From positions 1,376,001 to 1,440,000 of the forward strand of contig OZ219747.1 in the NCBI GenBank assembly GCA_964291265.2: a stretch of 64,000 nucleotides of DNA, given 5' to 3'. The notes under the pieces are model-generated. The model had not been told where the DNA came from, made no database searches, and was given only the letters and a program-made list of their open reading frames with translations. Shown in pieces: positions 1-55,230 of this stretch. The position numbers were made by a program, and so were the translations under genes. The number at the start of each line of letters is the position of its first letter. Position 1 is the stretch's first letter. Source of the stretch: Alphaproteobacteria bacterium (lineage in GTDB: Bacteria; Pseudomonadota; Alphaproteobacteria; SP197).

Positions 1-264
1 GAGGTGGTTGGTGAGAGACGGTGAAGGAGCGAGTAAGGATCATGACGCGGACAAGTTCCATGAGCGAAAGACCCGGACGTCATGGGCCGAGGAGACTGGT
101 TCACTGGCTCAACCTGACGGGAGAAAGGAAGGTCCACTCACTGGTGGGATCGCTTGATCTCACTGGTCCCTTCCCTGAACCTTCGAAGAGACCCCCCTGT
201 GAAAGCGGCTTACGGGAAAACCGTACGGGCCGTTTGAGCGGCGGACGGAGGCCAGCCCTGCGGG
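1..264 (+). mobile_element. 3' remnant of a second, internally deleted group II intron nested in copy 1
   Basis: Separate DV hairpin AAGCGGC-TTACGG-GAAA-ACCGTA-CG-GGCCGTTT at 203-235; RT N-terminal-like peptide GERKVHSLV joined to C-terminal-like LISLVPSL; host intron sequence (GTGAAGGCGGCGAACAAG) resumes at about 268. Confidence 0.7.
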
Positions 265-267
265 CCG

Positions 268-1713
268 GTGAAGGCGGCGAACAAGGGAGCGTCAGCTTCT
301 GCGGAGTCGCCGGAGGAAAGGGCCTCAACCAAGGGGAATCCGGGACGCCAAAGCACGCACCGAACGCAGTGTCGGGCAAGTGTGCCACAGGCGGCGGACC
401 GGATACGGGAAGCTGCAGAGAGGAACCCGAAGGAGCGTCTCACTGCACTCTTCCATCACATTACGCCGGATGCGCTCCGGGCGGCCTACTTCGGTTTGAA
501 GAAGGAAGCCTCGGCAGGTGTCGACGGCGTGACGTGGGCGGCGTATGGCGAGGGTCTGGACGAGCGCTTGCTTGATCTGCACTCGCGCCTGCATCGTGGG
601 GGAGCGTACCGGGCGCCGCCGGTTCGGCGGGTTGAGATACCCAAGCCGGACGGCGGGGCACGACCGCTCGGGATTGCCGCACTGGAGGACAAGATCGTTC
701 AGAAGGCGGTTGTGGATGTGATCCTGACACCGATTTATGAGGTGGAGTTCCTTGGCTTCAGCTACGGGTTCCGACCGGGCCGAGGGGCGCATGACGCTCT
801 CGACGCCCTGGCGTTCGAGATCGAGCGGCGCAAGGTCAACTGGATAGTCGACGCGGACATTCAGGGGTACTTCGACACAATCCCGAGGGATTGGTTGATC
901 AAGTTCCTGGAGCATCGCATTGGCGACAGGCGGGTGATCCGTCTGATCCGCAAGTGGCTGAACGCTGGCGTCATGACCGACGGATCATGGAGCGATACCG
1001 GTGCGGGCACGCCTCAGGGTGCCATTGTCAGCCCCTGCCTGGCGAACGTGTTTCTGCACTACGTGCTCGATCTGTGGTTTCACAAGGCATGGCGTCCGAA
1101 GGTTCCGAACGGTGAAGCGATCATTGTCCGCTACGCGGACGATATTGTGGTCGGGTTCCAGCACAAGCGGGATGCGGAGACATACCTTCGCGACGTTCGG
1201 GAGAGGCTGGACCGCTTTGGTCTCACCCTTTACCCGGACAAGACCCGTCTCGTCGAGTTTGGCCGGTTTGCCAAGGCGAACCGGCGATCTCGCGGGGCGG
1301 GCAGGCCGGAGACGTTCGACTTCCTGGGCTTCACGCACTTCTGCACGGAGACCCGGAGAGGACGCTTCAGGCTTGGTCGCAAGCCGGTCGCAAAACGGGT
1401 CGCAAGGACCCTGGCGCGCATCGAGGAGGTGCTTCGCAATCGACGGCATCACGACATATGGGAGGTCGGCATGTGGCTTGGGCGGGTCTGTCATGGCTGG
1501 TTCAACTACTTCGCCGTCCCGGGGTCGACCCGATGGCTGCGCACGTTCCGCCACAGGCTGCAACGCCTATGGCTGCGAGCGATCCGCCGCCGCTCCCAGC
1601 GCCACCGTTTTGACTGGAAGCGACTGGAGCGCATGACCGAGCTTCTTTGGCCGCGCGTCTCCATCCGCCACCCATGGCCGATCCAGCGGTTTACCGTCAA
1701 GCACCCGAGGTAG
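268..1713 (+). CDS. ltrA: Group II intron reverse transcriptase/maturase without endonuclease domain (true start may be GTG 382)
   Basis: SAGVDG, RPLGI, SYGFRPGR, DADIQGYFD, GTPQG, YADD, FDFLGFT and maturase X domain; uninterrupted ORF. Confidence 0.95.
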   Translation: MKAANKGASASAESPEERASTKGNPGRQSTHRTQCRASVPQAADRIREAAERNPKERLTALFHHITPDALRAAYFGLKKEASAGVDGVTWAAYGEGLDERLLDLHSRLHRGGAYRAPPVRRVEIPKPDGGARPLGIAALEDKIVQKAVVDVILTPIYEVEFLGFSYGFRPGRGAHDALDALAFEIERRKVNWIVDADIQGYFDTIPRDWLIKFLEHRIGDRRVIRLIRKWLNAGVMTDGSWSDTGAGTPQGAIVSPCLANVFLHYVLDLWFHKAWRPKVPNGEAIIVRYADDIVVGFQHKRDAETYLRDVRERLDRFGLTLYPDKTRLVEFGRFAKANRRSRGAGRPETFDFLGFTHFCTETRRGRFRLGRKPVAKRVARTLARIEEVLRNRRHHDIWEVGMWLGRVCHGWFNYFAVPGSTRWLRTFRHRLQRLWLRAIRRRSQRHRFDWKRLERMTELLWPRVSIRHPWPIQRFTVKHPR

Positions 1714-1785
1714 GAGCCGGATGGATTAACGTCCAAGTCCGGATCTGTGCGGGGGGTGCGCAGTAATGCGCATCCCTACCGCGAC

Positions 1786-2583
1786 GATGATCTCTGCGAC
1801 ATGATCGAGGAAGCTCTCGAAGCGCCGGGCGGTGCGCCTGCCCATGGCGGCGATGGTGGCGGTTGAGATCCTGACGGCGAAGAGGTCGCTCATGACCTCG
1901 GCGACGCGCTTCTCGGGAATGAACTGGGCGTGCAACAGGTAGGTCACCCAGGCGGTGATGCGCGGCCCGTACTGGACCGGGGCGCTCACGCCGTGCGGGA
2001 AGGCGGCTGTTGTCACGGCGCCGCAGGCGGCGCAGAGACAGCGATGGGCGCGATGTTCGGTGACCTCGAGGGGCTGCGGCTCGGGCATGTCGAAGACCTG
2101 CCGACAGACGGGTTCTGCGTGACGGTCATCATCCGACAGCGCCGCGCCGCAGCCCTTACAGGCAGACGGAGCATGATCGACGACGTGGTCCGGGTTCTCG
2201 GCCTGCTTCAGGGTGACTCCCTCGTGGCCGCGCTGACCGCCACTGGGCCTGTCGGACTTGCCGCGCTGGCTCCGGGTGCGCTTCTGTCGGTTTCCGCTCT
2301 TCTTCTTCGGACCGTCGCTGGCCGGTGGCTTGGAGCTGGTGGAGCTGTCGAGCGCGGCGCTGCGCTCGAGTGCATCAATCCGTTCGCGCAAGCCGGTGTT
2401 CTCCCGCTCCAGCGCCTCGATCTCCCCGACCAGCGTCTCACTCAGGCGCAACATCCCCTGGCCCCAATCCCGGAGGGCCTTGACGGCAGTCACGGCGAAG
2501 GGGTGTGGACTGAACAGGTCCTGAAGGCCCACGAAGGCCTCGTCCTGGGCGGCGATGTCCTCGCGCCAGCGCGAGACGGTCAC
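1786..2583 (-). pseudogene. tnpC: IS66 transposase TnpC, N-terminal part, interrupted by group II intron
   Basis: Leucine zipper, SSKPPASD, GGQRGHEG, CxxC zinc motifs, RQVFD, PVQYGP; GTG start overlaps the MTase stop (GTGA). Confidence 0.88.
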
Positions 2584-3248
2584 GAACCCTCCCCGGCCTC
2601 GACGGCCATGATCGCCGCCAGCACGGCCAGACGTTCCCCCGGCGGCATGGCCTCGTAGCGCCGCCCCCAGTTGGCCGCCTTGCGCTTGATGCACTGGCGG
2701 GCGGTGAAGTTCCGCCCCGCGTAGCGCGACCAGTGCACCCGGTCGGGAGCAAAGTTGAACCATACCACCTCGGTCCGCACCTGGGCCTGGGTCGTCACCT
2801 GTAGCGCCACCCGGCGCCAGCCCGCCAGAAGATCGTCATAGAGCGCAGACGGGTGGCCCGAGACCATCACCTGACAGGGCAGGCCCTTGAGCAGTTCAAG
2901 GAGCGCAACATGGTCCGCCTCCTCGTACTCGAAGCGGTAGCGCCGCGACGAACGCCGCGTCGCGTGCAGATAGGGCGGATCGCTGTAGACCAGCTCCGGA
3001 CCCAGAAACGGGAACGAAGCCAGGAAGGAGTGAGCACAGCCGTGCACCAACTCCACCGGATAAGCGCACTCAAAGGCCTCAAGCGCACGCTCATCACGGT
3101 CAATCCCGATCGAGCGCACAGACGCAGCCTTGCGCTTCATCAGCGCTCCGCCCCCCAGATGGCTCTCAATGTAGACAGAGTGCGGCGGCATCAGCGCAAT
3201 CAGCGCCTGGCACAAACCCGGCGTCGCCTTCGATCCGAAATACCCCAA
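2580..3248 (-). CDS. Compact Dam-like (D12 class) DNA adenine methyltransferase
   Basis: YFGSK, ESHLGGGA (motif I), GIDRD, LVYSDPPY (motif IV), MVSG, TEVVWFNF. Confidence 0.88.
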   Translation of the reverse strand: MGYFGSKATPGLCQALIALMPPHSVYIESHLGGGALMKRKAASVRSIGIDRDERALEAFECAYPVELVHGCAHSFLASFPFLGPELVYSDPPYLHATRRSSRRYRFEYEEADHVALLELLKGLPCQVMVSGHPSALYDDLLAGWRRVALQVTTQAQVRTEVVWFNFAPDRVHWSRYAGRNFTARQCIKRKAANWGRRYEAMPPGERLAVLAAIMAVEAGEGS

Positions 3249-3276
3249 CGGCCGCTCCCCTCATGACAAAGAGCAA

Positions 3277-3305
3277 CTCATAGACTCACCGGCCTAGTAA
3301 GTCAA
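3277..3305 (-). promoter_or_regulatory. sigma70-like promoter of element A MTase
   Basis: TTGACT-N17-TATGAG, about 30 bp upstream of the start; contains TAG-N10-CTA. Confidence 0.55.
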
Positions 3306-3980
3306 GACGCGCAGAATCAACAAACCGACGACACCAAAACCGCACCCAACGCAACCAACGTCAACACAGACTCAGACCTGACGAGGTACCTGGGTAGTTA
3401 CGAACATCCTGAAGCTCAGCGAAGAGGTACGGGAAACCAGCGCTGAGGCGCTCGCAAAGGTCTGGTCCTGGCGCGCTAGACGACGTCAGCTCACCGTCCT
3501 GCCGGTACCAGCGAGGAACGCCGCCCCGTCTTCTTCGAACAGCGCCGCCCGGCCAGGGTGGGGGCGTGGAGGAAGTGCTGCCGGACCATCAGTTCGTTCC
3601 GCTGCGCCCGTTCGGCATCCCCGCGCACCGGCACATCCCGCAGCTTATCACCGCCTGGCCGAGCCGGCGGGTCTGTACATGCCGCCGGAGAACGGAAGGC
3701 GCTGGCAATCCCTCGGACTTGCCCTGCGGATGCGAGCGGTGTCAGGGCCGCGACACGGCTTGATGCCCGCTCCCGTGCGCGTCATGCATGTCGAAATGCC
3801 GGCAGGCTTACCCCGCCAGGCGATTTCGGCTAGCATGGCTGCTCTCGGCCACGACCGACTTGCAGCCGTTGGGTCTGGCCCCCGAGGATACGCTTGATCG
3901 GGATGTGCGCTTCCATGGATGGGCGTGTGCACCCTGCGGCATGAGATGTTCAGCACGATTTGTGACCGAGGGGCAGGCCC

Positions 3981-51243: not shown

Positions 51244-51487
51244 GTAACTACTCACCCCCTACTGATGACGGATCGTTTTTCCTGACGGGTTCGGATCCGG
51301 CATTTTCTCTTGCCGCCTTCACTTGCTCGCTGCCGATGATCGGATGTGCGTGTTCCGACTGACAAGAAGCGGATCGATCTTCGGCTTCAGCTCCACGTTC
51401 CGGCCTTGTATGACCAGGTTTTGTCCCCGTGATGATGCAATCATCCACAGCGGTTGGCTGCCTTTCCAATCCTCTGGAGATATGCGC

Positions 51488-51516
51488 TTGACATTGTAGG
51501 AGGGGCACTCTACATG
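51488..51516 (+). promoter_or_regulatory. sigma70-like promoter of element B MTase
   Basis: TTGACA-N17-TACATG containing the dyad TGTAG-N10-CTACA. Confidence 0.6.
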
Positions 51517-51547
51517 CTGGCCATCGGGGCGGTTTGCGTCGGAGATA

Positions 51548-52225
51548 TTGATGGCGGCATGGTACGGATCGAAGGCGACGACGGGTCTGAGCCAGGCGAT
51601 CGTCGCGGCCATGCCGCCGCATGACGTGTACATCGAGGCGTTCCTTGGGGGCGGCGCGATCATGAAGCGCAAGCCTCCGGCGCTACGCAGCATCGGCATC
51701 GACCTCAACCGACGGGCGATCGACACCTTCCGCTGTGACTATCCGGTGGAGCTTCACCAAGGCTGCGCCCTGCGTTTTCTCGAGACCTTCGCCTTCCAGG
51801 GCCGCGAGCTGGTCTACTGCGACCCGCCTTACGTGCAGTCGACGCGCCGGTCGCAGCGCCGCTACCGCTTCGACTGCACGGACGATGACCATGTTGCGCT
51901 CCTCGACATCCTGACGTCGCTGCCCTGCCAGGTGATGATCTCCGGCTATCCCTCGCGGCTCTACGACACGCACCTCGCCGGCTGGCGCTCGGCCGAGGTC
52001 CAGGTCAACAACCAGGCCTGCGTTGTCACCGAGAAGCTGTGGTTCAACTTCGCACCGGGCCGGCCGCACTGGCATACGTGTGCGGGCAGGAACTCGATCG
52101 ACCGCCAGCGCATCAAGCGCCTCGCAGAGAGCTGGGCGCGGCGCTACCGGACGATGCCCGAAGGCGAGCGGCTCGCCGTGCTGGCGGCTGTCATGGCGGT
52201 GGAGGCGTCGTCATGGCGAGCGTGA
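51548..52225 (+). CDS. Compact Dam-like (D12 class) DNA adenine methyltransferase
   Basis: WYGSK, EAFLGGGA, GIDLN, LVYCDPPY, MISGY, TEKLWFNF; full-length homolog of 2580-3248. Confidence 0.9.
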   Translation: MMAAWYGSKATTGLSQAIVAAMPPHDVYIEAFLGGGAIMKRKPPALRSIGIDLNRRAIDTFRCDYPVELHQGCALRFLETFAFQGRELVYCDPPYVQSTRRSQRRYRFDCTDDDHVALLDILTSLPCQVMISGYPSRLYDTHLAGWRSAEVQVNNQACVVTEKLWFNFAPGRPHWHTCAGRNSIDRQRIKRLAESWARRYRTMPEGERLAVLAAVMAVEASSWRA

Positions 52226-53691
52226 ACGGCACGTCTGTGCGCCAGGAGGCCGACGTCTTCCAGAAGCAGTTCCAGGATCTCCGCAAGCAGGGCAAGGTCA
52301 ACCAGGAGTGCGAGGAGCTCTTCCGCGGCATGCTGATGCTGATAAAGCTGTTGCTGACCGTGCTCATGGAGAAGATCACACGCAAGACAAGCCGGAACTC
52401 CGGTCTGCCGCCATCGCAGACTGACAAGGACGAGAGCGCGAGGCGCACCGGGAGCCACGGCAAGGGCCCGAAACCGAACCAGCAGACGGGCGACAACCTG
52501 CGCACGACCACCGTCGAGGAGACGATCGTCGTCGATGCCTGCGACGCCTGCGGCGCCGACCTCCACGATGTCGACCCCGTCGACCGGGAGTGCCGCGTCC
52601 TCTACGACATCGTGTTCGAAGTCGTCGAGCGCCGCGTCGAAGCCGAGATCAAGGAATGCCCGAAGTGCCGGACCCGGACCAAGGGCCGGTTCCCAGACAA
52701 CATGCCGGGCCCCCTGCAGTATGGCGTCAGCATCCAGGCCCTCGTCATCAACCTGCTGATCGCCCAGATGCTGTCCCTGCGTCGTGCCGTCTCGCTCGTG
52801 CACGCGATCTCCGGCATCAAGCTCTCCGAGGCGACCTGCCTCGGCTATGTCCGGCGCTTTCACGATGCCCTCGCATCATGGGAGGAGGCCGCCGTGGCCC
52901 ATCTCCTGCAACAACCGGCCCTGCATGTCGACGAGACCGGCTTCCGGGTCGCCGGCAAGACCCAATGGCTCCATGTCGTCACCGACGGCACCCTGACGTG
53001 CAAGTTCCCGCACCCCAAGCGCGGCCGGGAGGCGATCGAAGAGATCGGCATCATCCCGCGCTACAAGGGCGTCCTGATCCACGACTGCTGGGCTGCCTAC
53101 ATGGGCTACGATCAATGCCGCCACCAACTGTGCGGCAGCCATCTCCTGCGCGAACTGACCTTCGTCGTCGAGTCCAACGGCTACCGCTGGGCGCGACTGA
53201 TGAAAAGCCTGCTGCGCGAGGTCTCCCGCAGGGTCAACAAGAGCGCATCCAAGACCTTGAACGAGGCCGACCGCCGGGCCGTGCGCAAGCGCTACCGCAC
53301 CATCCTCACCCAGGGCGCCAGGGAACTGCCCGACATCCCGCCACGGACGAAAGGAAAACGGGGACGCATCGCAAAGTCCGACGCGCACAACCTGCATGAA
53401 CGTCTCGTGAAACACGAGAAGTCCGTCCTGCGCTTCATGAAGGACCCCAATGTCAGTTTCACAAATAATACCGGAGAGCAGAAGATCAGGATGACAAAGG
53501 TCAAGATCAAGGTGTCCGGATGTTTCCGTACCATGCCCCACGCCAAAGCATGGTGCCGCGGCTCAAGCTACCTCACCACCATGGACGCACTCGGCTACAA
53601 CCCTCACGTCGCCATCCACATCGCCCTCGACGGAAAGGCCGTAGACATCCTCAACCAGCACTACGGACAACCAGACCCTAACAAGGGGTGA
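52213..53691 (+). CDS. tnpC: IS66 transposase TnpC, intact
   Basis: NSGLPPSQ, CxxC pairs, HVDETG, IHDCW, CGSHLLREL, FTNNTGE, KVSGCFR; GGAGG RBS inside the MTase 3' end. Confidence 0.94.
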   Translation: MASVNGTSVRQEADVFQKQFQDLRKQGKVNQECEELFRGMLMLIKLLLTVLMEKITRKTSRNSGLPPSQTDKDESARRTGSHGKGPKPNQQTGDNLRTTTVEETIVVDACDACGADLHDVDPVDRECRVLYDIVFEVVERRVEAEIKECPKCRTRTKGRFPDNMPGPLQYGVSIQALVINLLIAQMLSLRRAVSLVHAISGIKLSEATCLGYVRRFHDALASWEEAAVAHLLQQPALHVDETGFRVAGKTQWLHVVTDGTLTCKFPHPKRGREAIEEIGIIPRYKGVLIHDCWAAYMGYDQCRHQLCGSHLLRELTFVVESNGYRWARLMKSLLREVSRRVNKSASKTLNEADRRAVRKRYRTILTQGARELPDIPPRTKGKRGRIAKSDAHNLHERLVKHEKSVLRFMKDPNVSFTNNTGEQKIRMTKVKIKVSGCFRTMPHAKAWCRGSSYLTTMDALGYNPHVAIHIALDGKAVDILNQHYGQPDPNKG

Positions 53692-53699
53692 GTAGTTAC

Positions 53700-54039: not shown

Positions 54040-54199
54040 GAATTCTCTCTTGCTGAATGTCCCGCCCTGTGTTGAAACTCGTCTGAGAGTGCCGCTTCGT
54101 GATGGTAGGTTACGCTGCGTCCTTGATCTGGTCAAGCTTGCAGCTCTGACGATGCGAAGTCAGAGCCTTTTTGAGCGGAGGCATTTGGCATCTACACAT

Positions 54200-54302
54200 C
54201 CCCCTACTGAGGACGAATCGTTTTTCCTGACGGGTTCGGATCCGGCATTTTCTCTTGCCGCCTTCACTTGCTCGCTTCCGATGACCGGATGTGCGTGTTC
54301 CG
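54200..54302 (+). repeat. Relic of the left-end region of element B
   Basis: Near-identical to 51255-51357; terminal IR missing; ends at intron copy 3. Confidence 0.85.
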
Positions 54303-55230
54303 GTGTGCCAACTGGCAGATGGTATGGGGTGAAAGTCCCCTGTAACGAAGGAGTAGCCAAACCACGTTTCTCCGCGAGCCGTGCGTCGGTTCCCGCGAGG
54401 GGGCAGGCGAAGCGTCGGTAGCGGTACGGATGGGCAGGGCTAATGAGCACCGAAAAGACGACAATTCGGGGTGCCGAGGATTTCAGATCGGTCGAAGGCA
54501 ACATCGCAGGCATCGCTATGGTGAGATGTCGGCGAGCTCCGCGGTGTCAGAAAACCCATGCACGTCCGTACGCCTTCTGTTGGGACCCTGGGAGGTCTTC
54601 AAACTGTCCCGCCTGTCGTGGCGGGACCGTGTAGGGAAAGGAGAAAGCCGAAGCCTATGATGCACGGTTTGAAGAAGTCGGATGGGGTCGTAGGGTGTGC
54701 TGGGCAGCGCCCAAATCAGGTGGGTTCAAGTCCCACTGGCGCTCGGGTAAGGGGCGCCATATCCAAAAGCGGGGGTCATTCCTCGCTGGCCGGGGTGAGC
54801 GACTTCCTGGGCTTCACGCACTTCTGCACGGAGACCCGGAGAGGACGCTTCAGGCTTGGTCGCAAGCCGGTCGCAAAACGGGTCACAAGGACCCTGGCGC
54901 GCATCGAGGAGGTGCTTCGCAATCGACGGCATCACGACATATGGGAGGTCGGCATGTGGCTTGGGCGAGTTGTCAATGGCTGGTCCAACTACTTCGCCGT
55001 CCCGGGGTCGACCCGATGGCTGCGCACGTTCCGCCAAAGGCTGCAACGCCTGTGGCTGCGAGCGATCCGCCGCCGCTCCCAGCGCCACCGTTTTGACTGG
55101 AAGCGATTGGAGCGAATGACCGAGCTTCTTTGGCCGCGCGCCTCCATCCGCCACCCATGGCCGGACCAGCGGTTTACCGTCAAGCACCCGAGGTAGGAGC
55201 CGGATGGATTAGCGTCCAAGTCCGGATCTG
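54303..55230 (+). mobile_element. Group II intron copy 3, deleted and 3'-truncated after DV
   Basis: GTGTG start, 5' domains match 22930 onward; RT C-terminus 54801-55196 nearly identical to 1318-1713; empty site TGTTCCG^ACTGAC at 51357/51358. Confidence 0.9.
54695..54800 (+). mobile_element. 5' fragment of a nested second group II intron
   Basis: New GTGTGC start directly after AAGTCGGATGGGGTCGTAGG, followed by GTGGG-TTCAAGT-CCCAC hairpin. Confidence 0.7.

Follow-up and report, generated by a model that had tools for sequence, protein, structure and literature searches.

At the left edge of a 64,000-nucleotide stretch of an alphaproteobacterial genome (contig OZ219747.1, positions 1,376,001 to 1,440,000; hereafter the window) lies an intron-broken IS66 element in which a gene for a Upf31-like, Dam-fold protein stands ahead of the transposase gene tnpC, itself preceded by a predicted promoter that overlaps an inverted repeat. 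Comparison with relatives supports the view that this promoter-palindrome and the Upf31-like gene form a portable cassette, found ahead of several transposase lineages. The cassette protein likely binds the palindrome, repressing a transcript that it probably has in common with the transposase.

An IS66 element with an additional gene ahead of tnpC

The element, named here element A, is a 2.44 kb IS66 with a single transposase, present in the source genome as eight copies with both ends. The window copy runs along the minus strand from its left end at 3401 through a 153 bp leader and a 222-codon ORF into tnpC, and a second element of this kind, element B, lies on the plus strand. Their features are as follows (window positions; the prefix C2 denotes contig positions):

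3389..3401, minus strand: left terminal inverted repeat of element A (GTAACTACCCAGG), at the boundary common to the eight copies
3276..3305, minus strand: predicted sigma70-type promoter and overlapping inverted repeat (predicted operator)
3255..3262, minus strand: likely ribosome-binding site GAGGGGAG, 6 nt before the TTG start, called from sequence
2580..3248, minus strand: intact Upf31-family Dam-fold gene, 222 aa, with a fold matching DpnM/Dam
1786..2583, minus strand: 5' half of tnpC, 266 codons, matching PF20042, PF13005 and PF03050 (DUF6444, zf-IS66 and the start of DDE_Tnp_IS66)
1..1785, plus strand: group II intron, the 3' part of a 2.76-kb intron (C2:1375030-1377785), assigned by RF02005, RF00029 and its junctions
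51244..53699, plus strand: element B, with an 8-bp target duplication
51488-51512, plus strand: predicted promoter/operator of element B
to 52225, plus strand: Upf31-like gene of element B
52213 (probable start) to 53691, plus strand: the different tnpC of element B

The sequence-only reading had described this gene order as that of element B, which was confirmed (ORF at 3248-2580, tnpC from 2583), as was a related terminus, GTAACTAC being common to A and B for 8 bases. The right end that this reading presupposed also exists: a right inverted repeat matching the left end at 12/13 bases lies at C2:1374205, 1.8 kb before the window, leaving 826 bp of element A outside it, and the remainder of tnpC occupies C2:1375029-1374286. 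The target duplication sought with it is absent from the window copy, and a genome-wide search for a partner flank carrying the missing duplication found none. Across the eight copies, duplications are perfect at 8 bp in three and at 9 bp in one, match at 7/8 in one and are lacking in three, the window copy among these. Element B is present in 15 copies, 14 of them with perfect 8-bp duplications and 10 with both ORFs full-length.

For full-length analyses of the transposase (TnpC-A), the intact copy at C2:1237444 served as source. Intact TnpC-A from the same genome scores 280 bits against NF033517 (cut-off 180), also matches PF03050 and features the motifs DETG, HDD and NNQAEQ. Single-ORF IS66 members such as ISDge4 make up the ISBst12 group, so far as the excerpted text of PMC12898284 describes it. 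Measured against that text, element A resembles the group in possessing an IS66 TnpC above the NCBIfam cut-off, GTAACT-type short terminal repeats and 8-bp target duplications, and in lacking tnpA and tnpB, for which it has no room (82 bp left over). It differs from the group as described there by the extra gene and predicted promoter/operator between left end and tnpC, a distance of only 65-68 bp in cassette-less relatives. The second, Upf31-like ORF departs from the single-ORF layout, and element A is thus best regarded as a variant of the ISBst12 group.

Heavily nested elements were observed at C2:4174396-4177076, C2:2243200-2248007 and from C2:2257314 onward. In one case an A copy sits within the leader of a B copy, in another a B copy lies apparently within the nested intron family, and in a third an IS21-like element of ~35 copies (labelled from reading its sequence) interrupts another A copy. 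At L019-L023 and L052, nearly identical elements of the A type (MTase 85-91% identical) were also seen; their records bear the titles Alphaproteobacteria, Dehalococcoidia, Binatia and Tectimicrobiota, a spread that suggests movement across phyla if the binning is right.

A recent intron and a gene dispensable in cis

As first read, the MTase-like ORF of the window copy is intact and tnpC is broken by an intron; this is a group II intron that ends at 1785. Its reverse transcriptase (RT) ORF (268-1713) features RVT_1 and GIIM domains, and it was inserted without duplication and antisense to tnpC, so that it should not be spliceable from the tnpC message and the window-copy transposase would be dead. 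The flanks of the insertion are 98-99% identical to other A copies, which indicates that the intron arrived recently; the intact MTase-like gene beside it therefore says little about selection.

The same genome holds 15 other copies of the outer intron with a full-length RT match and ~15 internally deleted versions. Its structure is twintron-like (window 1-1785, C2:1375030-1376264): an 845-bp ORF-less intron-like piece, which starts GTGTG, has a domain V-like end and stops at 264, just before the RT ORF, is nested inside the RT-encoding intron. A second right half of element A (C2:1564695-1565737) carries the same intron at exactly the same tnpC site and is then truncated, with a different right flank; we read this as repeated homing or recombination between copies. 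Additional pieces were observed at window positions 54197-54305, 22964-23188 and 54332-54556: a fragment of a B left end that runs straight into a truncated group II intron, and another two 5' intron domains.

One frameshift in the MTase-like gene is common to five of the eight A copies, three of which have an intact 513-aa tnpC. Together with the recent date of the intron, this leaves the earlier suggestion that the gene is retained for its own benefit unsupported. Two of the frameshifted copies are 100% identical and lie at different sites with different duplications. Because four of the five frameshifted copies have perfect target duplications, an intact MTase-like gene in cis is dispensable for moving a copy. 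We also considered whether repressor loss raises transposition (perfect duplications in 4/5 frameshifted against 0/3 intact copies) and did not count this comparison, as the sample is small and its members are non-independent. Contigs from three sequencing runs differ from element A by allele variation only. One contig of one run has a 1-base insertion at 2848, as in the frameshifted copies; this run may be the window's own source, and is thus not independent.

A Dam-fold protein related to plasmid Upf31

The cassette protein of element A is 44% identical over its full length to Upf31.0 of AP018709 (98/220 aligned residues). It falls below the cut-offs of both TIGR00571 (24.7 bits against 114.85) and PF02086 (14.2 against 22), whereas the element B protein exceeds the latter at 34.5. 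A structure model (pLDDT 81.6, pTM 0.74) has a class I SAM-binding fold with motif I followed by DPPY. Its best Dam-family matches, over residues about 6-168, are DpnM (Z 16.5, rmsd 2.7, 147 of 258 residues aligned), E. coli Dam (Z 16.3) and T4 Dam (Z 15.4), and the SAM motif (ESHLGGG, 3167-3147) and DPPY (2981-2970) follow in the same order as in Dam/D12 proteins. Foldseek ranked generic class I MTases first and Dam lower, and a sequence search of the PDB found nothing relevant. Only ~55 residues lead from motif I to DPPY, and these are modelled as core alpha/beta fold; the partial alignment to DpnM, with only residues 7-168 of the protein matched, is consistent with a missing target-recognition domain. 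The model thus apparently comprises a catalytic domain without the recognition domain of Dam, followed by two additional C-terminal helices, and its scores lie far below the Dam/D12 cut-offs. By HMM score and the apparent lack of a recognition domain, the protein stands outside the Dam family. A homodimer prediction with SAM scored 0.24 against a mark of 0.42, and is counted neither for nor against a dimer.

Homologues at E 0.001 or better number 2760, the top 120 being 71-93% identical. DPPY is kept in 120/120 near homologues, in all 75 of the sequence clusters described below and in 142/150 distant matches, many of which are fragments. The gene is evidently under purifying selection, with an MTase dN/dS of 0.13-0.21 across eight A-lineage pairs. 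In a 400-genome sample of the phylum only two other genomes have it, as distant non-IS copies, and 5/22 other genomes of the genus have matches.

The upf31.0 gene of IncP-1 plasmids is among the relatives outside IS. According to the excerpted text of a preprint on the IncP-1beta protein (bioRxiv 10.1101/2024.02.05.579024), Upf31 expressed from a vector in E. coli ER2796 gave no methylation by SMRT sequencing, nor was methylation by restriction digest or Dam activity detected, and on a 68-bp upf31 promoter reporter it reduced expression from 4.76 to 0.09 units. The same text proposes inverted CAGCATCG repeats as the operator, where its authors infer that Upf31 binds, and predicts a C-terminal dimerisation domain. 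Upf31 (pBP136, R751) and the element A protein are alike in having a globular Dam-like domain with C-terminal helices. They differ in that A's gene heads a transposase operon in a multi-copy IS and lacks the KorB context. We use 'MTase' as a fold-level label, the only tested relative found, Upf31, having shown no methylation in that excerpt.

A conserved palindrome over the predicted promoter

The promoter predicted in the A leader has a -35 TTGACT at 3305-3300, a 17-bp spacer and a -10 TATGAG at 3282-3277, and the inverted repeat TACTAG-N10-CTATGAGT lies over it. This leader had been thought unrelated to that of element B, and a BLASTN comparison of the two found nothing beyond 7-10-base words. 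Nonetheless, both hold TTGAC-N4-TAG-N10-CTA with identical spacing, and the claim does not stand.

The motif was written from A and B alone, before the leaders of relatives were examined. Relatives were drawn from the best 80 matches of two scans and from genome searches, and are not a random sample; 228 loci yielded 215 with an intact gene, which form 75 clusters at 90% identity, two of them left out here for short upstream sequence. All 11 motif positions are matched in 60/73 clusters and at least 9 in 70/73. Not one of 268 downstream control windows scores 10 or more, and a full 11/11 match is absent from 7300 shuffles. Genome-wide there are 28 matches, with ~0.6 expected from base composition, all in A-type (10) or B-type (18) leaders. 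Aligned leaders give a longer consensus, TTGACA(A)CATAG-N10-CTATGCTG, in which the spacer is free; in A itself the left half-site is degenerate (ACTAG, not [CT]ATAG). The right half-site coincides with the -10 box, and part of its conservation may therefore reflect promoter constraint.

The upf31.0 leader has the same promoter geometry, with an inverted repeat and 10-bp spacer (TTGACAGCATCG-N10-CGATGCTG) in which both arms are changed symmetrically: the half-site core is TCG/CGA, against TAG/CTA in the IS leaders. Half-sites covary more widely, with CATCG/CGATG in Upf31 and L082, and a left G goes with a right C in 8/9 against 11/52, counts in which kin are not independent. A Xanthomonas plasmid homologue has two such sites, and the motif is absent from the phage SEN5 homologue and the 5'-truncated L135.

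These features also bear on a different reading, that the protein is an active, very narrow MTase that methylates adenines of its own bipartite operator, or of the element ends, which would be compatible with repression. Replication or entry into a cell would then set the state of the promoter, as a private Dam-like switch of the IS. DPPY and a SAM motif E-x-H/F-L-G-x-G are kept throughout, the modelled fold is closest to alpha-class N6-adenine MTases, and the invariant operator core TAG/CTA has an adenine on each strand. An invariant DPPY exceeds what a pure repressor obviously needs, and counts against pure repression. Set against activity are the lack of a methylation signal for Upf31, the sole tested relative, in the excerpted preprint, and the confinement of the Dam-family alignment to residues 7-168; that SMRT test, as excerpted, was vector-based, and may have missed a rare 20-bp site, either because the site was not there or because motif calling would not pick it up. 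We hold such an activity to be unlikely.

Gene junction and divergence of elements A and B

In element A, the stop of the Upf31-like gene overlaps the tnpC start (GTGA, 2583-2580), an arrangement predicted to couple their translation. Undamaged A-lineage relatives keep the same -1 offset of the transposase start; in most metagenomic relatives the two ORFs lie few to 33 nt apart with no overlap, so that coupling is not general. Across 73 loci (L005-L077), the codon at A's start position is GTG in 47, ATG in 25 and TTG in one. Element B has an ATG directly after its TTG, and another ATG lies in frame 9 nt upstream of its GTGA, from where the product would begin with MASVN like those of relatives; element B probably starts both genes at ATG. 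The TTG start and GTGA overlap once attributed to both elements are thus supported for A and, as a shared trait, are probably partly coincidental. An N-terminal stretch of TnpC-A (~30-45 residues, window 2454-2583) was observed ahead of the region common with cassette-less relatives. It is in frame to the GTGA overlap and conserved in 9/10 A-lineage proteins shown, L053 being the exception.

The proposal that the MTase is conserved while the transposase differs agrees with identities between A and B of 63% for the MTases and 33% for the TnpCs, whose N-termini are indeed unrelated (no BLASTP match at E 100). Within the A lineage (eight pairs, all with A), dS is equal in both genes, tnpC dN/dS is 0.27-0.49, and tnpC dN is 1.5-2.5 times that of the MTase. 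Between A and B the tnpC/MTase dN ratio is 2.9, with dS of 0.91 and 0.83. We rejected the A/B dN/dS comparison as a test of modularity, since dS is near saturation in GC-rich DNA. Comparing the two MTases with the two TnpCs, as had been proposed, therefore does not demonstrate module movement: the MTase always evolves about half as fast, and the A/B pair alone is not evidence of modularity.

These rates would suit simple co-descent, in which an old IS66 ancestor had both genes, the MTase evolved more slowly and some descendants lost it. Equal dS with about half the dN within the A lineage, and an A/B contrast little above the within-lineage range, are what it would predict. Its difficulties lie in the wider comparisons that follow, and overall we judge it very improbable.

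The cassette ahead of different transposases

Some relatives of the transposase lack the cassette. Among 14 IS66 loci fetched by similarity to TnpC-A, none has the gene or the motif (one has only 34 bp upstream); three of these are 48-55% identical to TnpC-A, with which TnpC-B shares 33%, and have A-like left ends with tnpC starting 65-68 bp after the end. TnpC trees group A with cassette-less relatives (100/99) and imply 3-4 changes in carrier status. Holding the A and B carriers together in the TnpC tree was rejected (p-AU 7e-6, or 1e-46 with a third lineage; 22-row subset). The MTase tree (58 rows) unites A with L078 and L094 (clade support 100/98), both of which have a B-type TnpC: the L094 TnpC is 67% identical to that of B, while the L094 MTase shares 72% identity with that of A and 62% with that of B. 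The TnpC-defined B clade was likewise rejected in the MTase tree (p-AU 2e-8; 30-row subset). The groups in these AU tests were named after the trees were viewed, under LG+G4 without a mixture model, and long-branch warnings apply. These comparisons show a mismatch between cassette and transposase trees; within IS66, repeated gains and repeated losses are inseparable on the trees.

The cassette also reaches a second IS family. G437 has two copies (99.5% identical) of an element that is 2784 bp long and bounded by perfect 18-bp terminal repeats. Within it lie the motif, an MTase that shares 82% identity with that of A, and a transposase of the IS701 family (NF049999, 309 bits against a cut-off of 170). 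Two metagenome contigs, L161 and L207, have partial IS701-type transposases in the same position, below the cut-off. The earlier proposal of a module moving between IS66 lineages is thus supported by incongruent trees and cassette-less kin of TnpC-A, and extends to the IS701 family. Co-descent is contradicted by the IS701 carrier and the conflicting placement of L094 and L078, together with the AU rejections; in parts of the IS66 tree it may still apply.

Two side observations concern the carriers. Each IS701 cassette copy in G437 abuts, end to end, an 88%-identical related stretch with the same terminal repeat (L237:617-1598, L236:4256-5238). In G424 (L233-L235), a 3.63-kb multi-copy IS66 with a canonical-type TnpC has the cassette 40 bp inside its left end, and tnpA/tnpB-like ORFs (by eye) at the other end on the opposite strand.

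Across the 75 clusters, the downstream gene encodes an IS66 transposase in 62, an IS701 transposase in two and both in one; the other ten comprise five distant non-IS homologues, four loci too short to tell and one other. Relatives outside IS, at 43-54% identity, occur on plasmids (172 records with a match, 129 of them conjugative) and P2-like phages, and anti-restriction methylases are common on conjugative plasmids and phages. The protein might on this basis be cargo with a protective role: a methylase of low specificity, or one acting on single strands, would guard the element or its carrier DNA against restriction, and the palindrome would only limit the toxicity of the protein. A position directly upstream of a same-strand transposase in 65/75 clusters argues against this, as does the lack of methylation by Upf31 in the excerpted preprint, and we regard cargo of this kind as improbable. 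The distant homologues L082 and L083 (~45%) have a symmetric CATCATCG-N10-CGATGATG site and are followed, in place of a transposase, by an 8-oxoguanine glycosylase-like gene whose start overlaps their stop; operons outside IS may also begin with the cassette.

A candidate control mechanism

We favor repression through the palindrome, a mechanism that we infer from the anatomy of the element and one plasmid relative at 44% identity. One promoter just inside the left end would drive a single mRNA for the Upf31-like gene and tnpC. Bound at the two half-sites, which lie between -35 and -10, the Upf31-like protein would block RNA polymerase, as suggested for plasmid Upf31, and this negative feedback would keep TnpC low in an occupied cell, with a copy entering a naive cell briefly derepressed. 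A and B share the operator core, and may therefore cross-repress in trans, across lineages. The cassette itself would move by recombining into, or being captured in, the interval that separates the left end from the transposase gene.

Transporter IS (tIS) carry passenger genes, and element A resembles them in having a second, non-transposase gene inside IS ends. The cassette differs in its own conserved, predicted operator, its fixed position ahead of the transposase and its recurrence across transposase lineages, and for these reasons fits a control module better than cargo. A keyword search of the literature found no description of an IS66 or IS701 with such a gene; ISfinder and 'Route 66' (2010) lay outside its scope, and an earlier description is possible. 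To our knowledge, the control of the transposase in IS66 elements without tnpA/tnpB is not established.

A more far-reaching version, to which we give rather low credence, is that unrelated IS families trade a control cassette whose protein, derived from Dam, not only binds its own operator but also methylates it, forming a private epigenetic switch with trans-silencing between lineages. If true, the switch would open after replication or on arrival in a new cell, and different IS lineages of the same genome would silence each other.

Repression through the palindrome would make the cassette a concrete and cheaply testable control mechanism, comprising a 222-aa protein and a 30-bp site. For the wider family, these data cast doubt on the 'DNA adenine methylase' label of many of the 2760 proteins, and place the puzzling Upf31 of plasmids in a far larger family, whose simple two-gene arrangement makes it possible to ask whether the conserved catalytic site matters. 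Overall, they suggest that IS control modules are exchangeable independently of the transposase, even across IS families.
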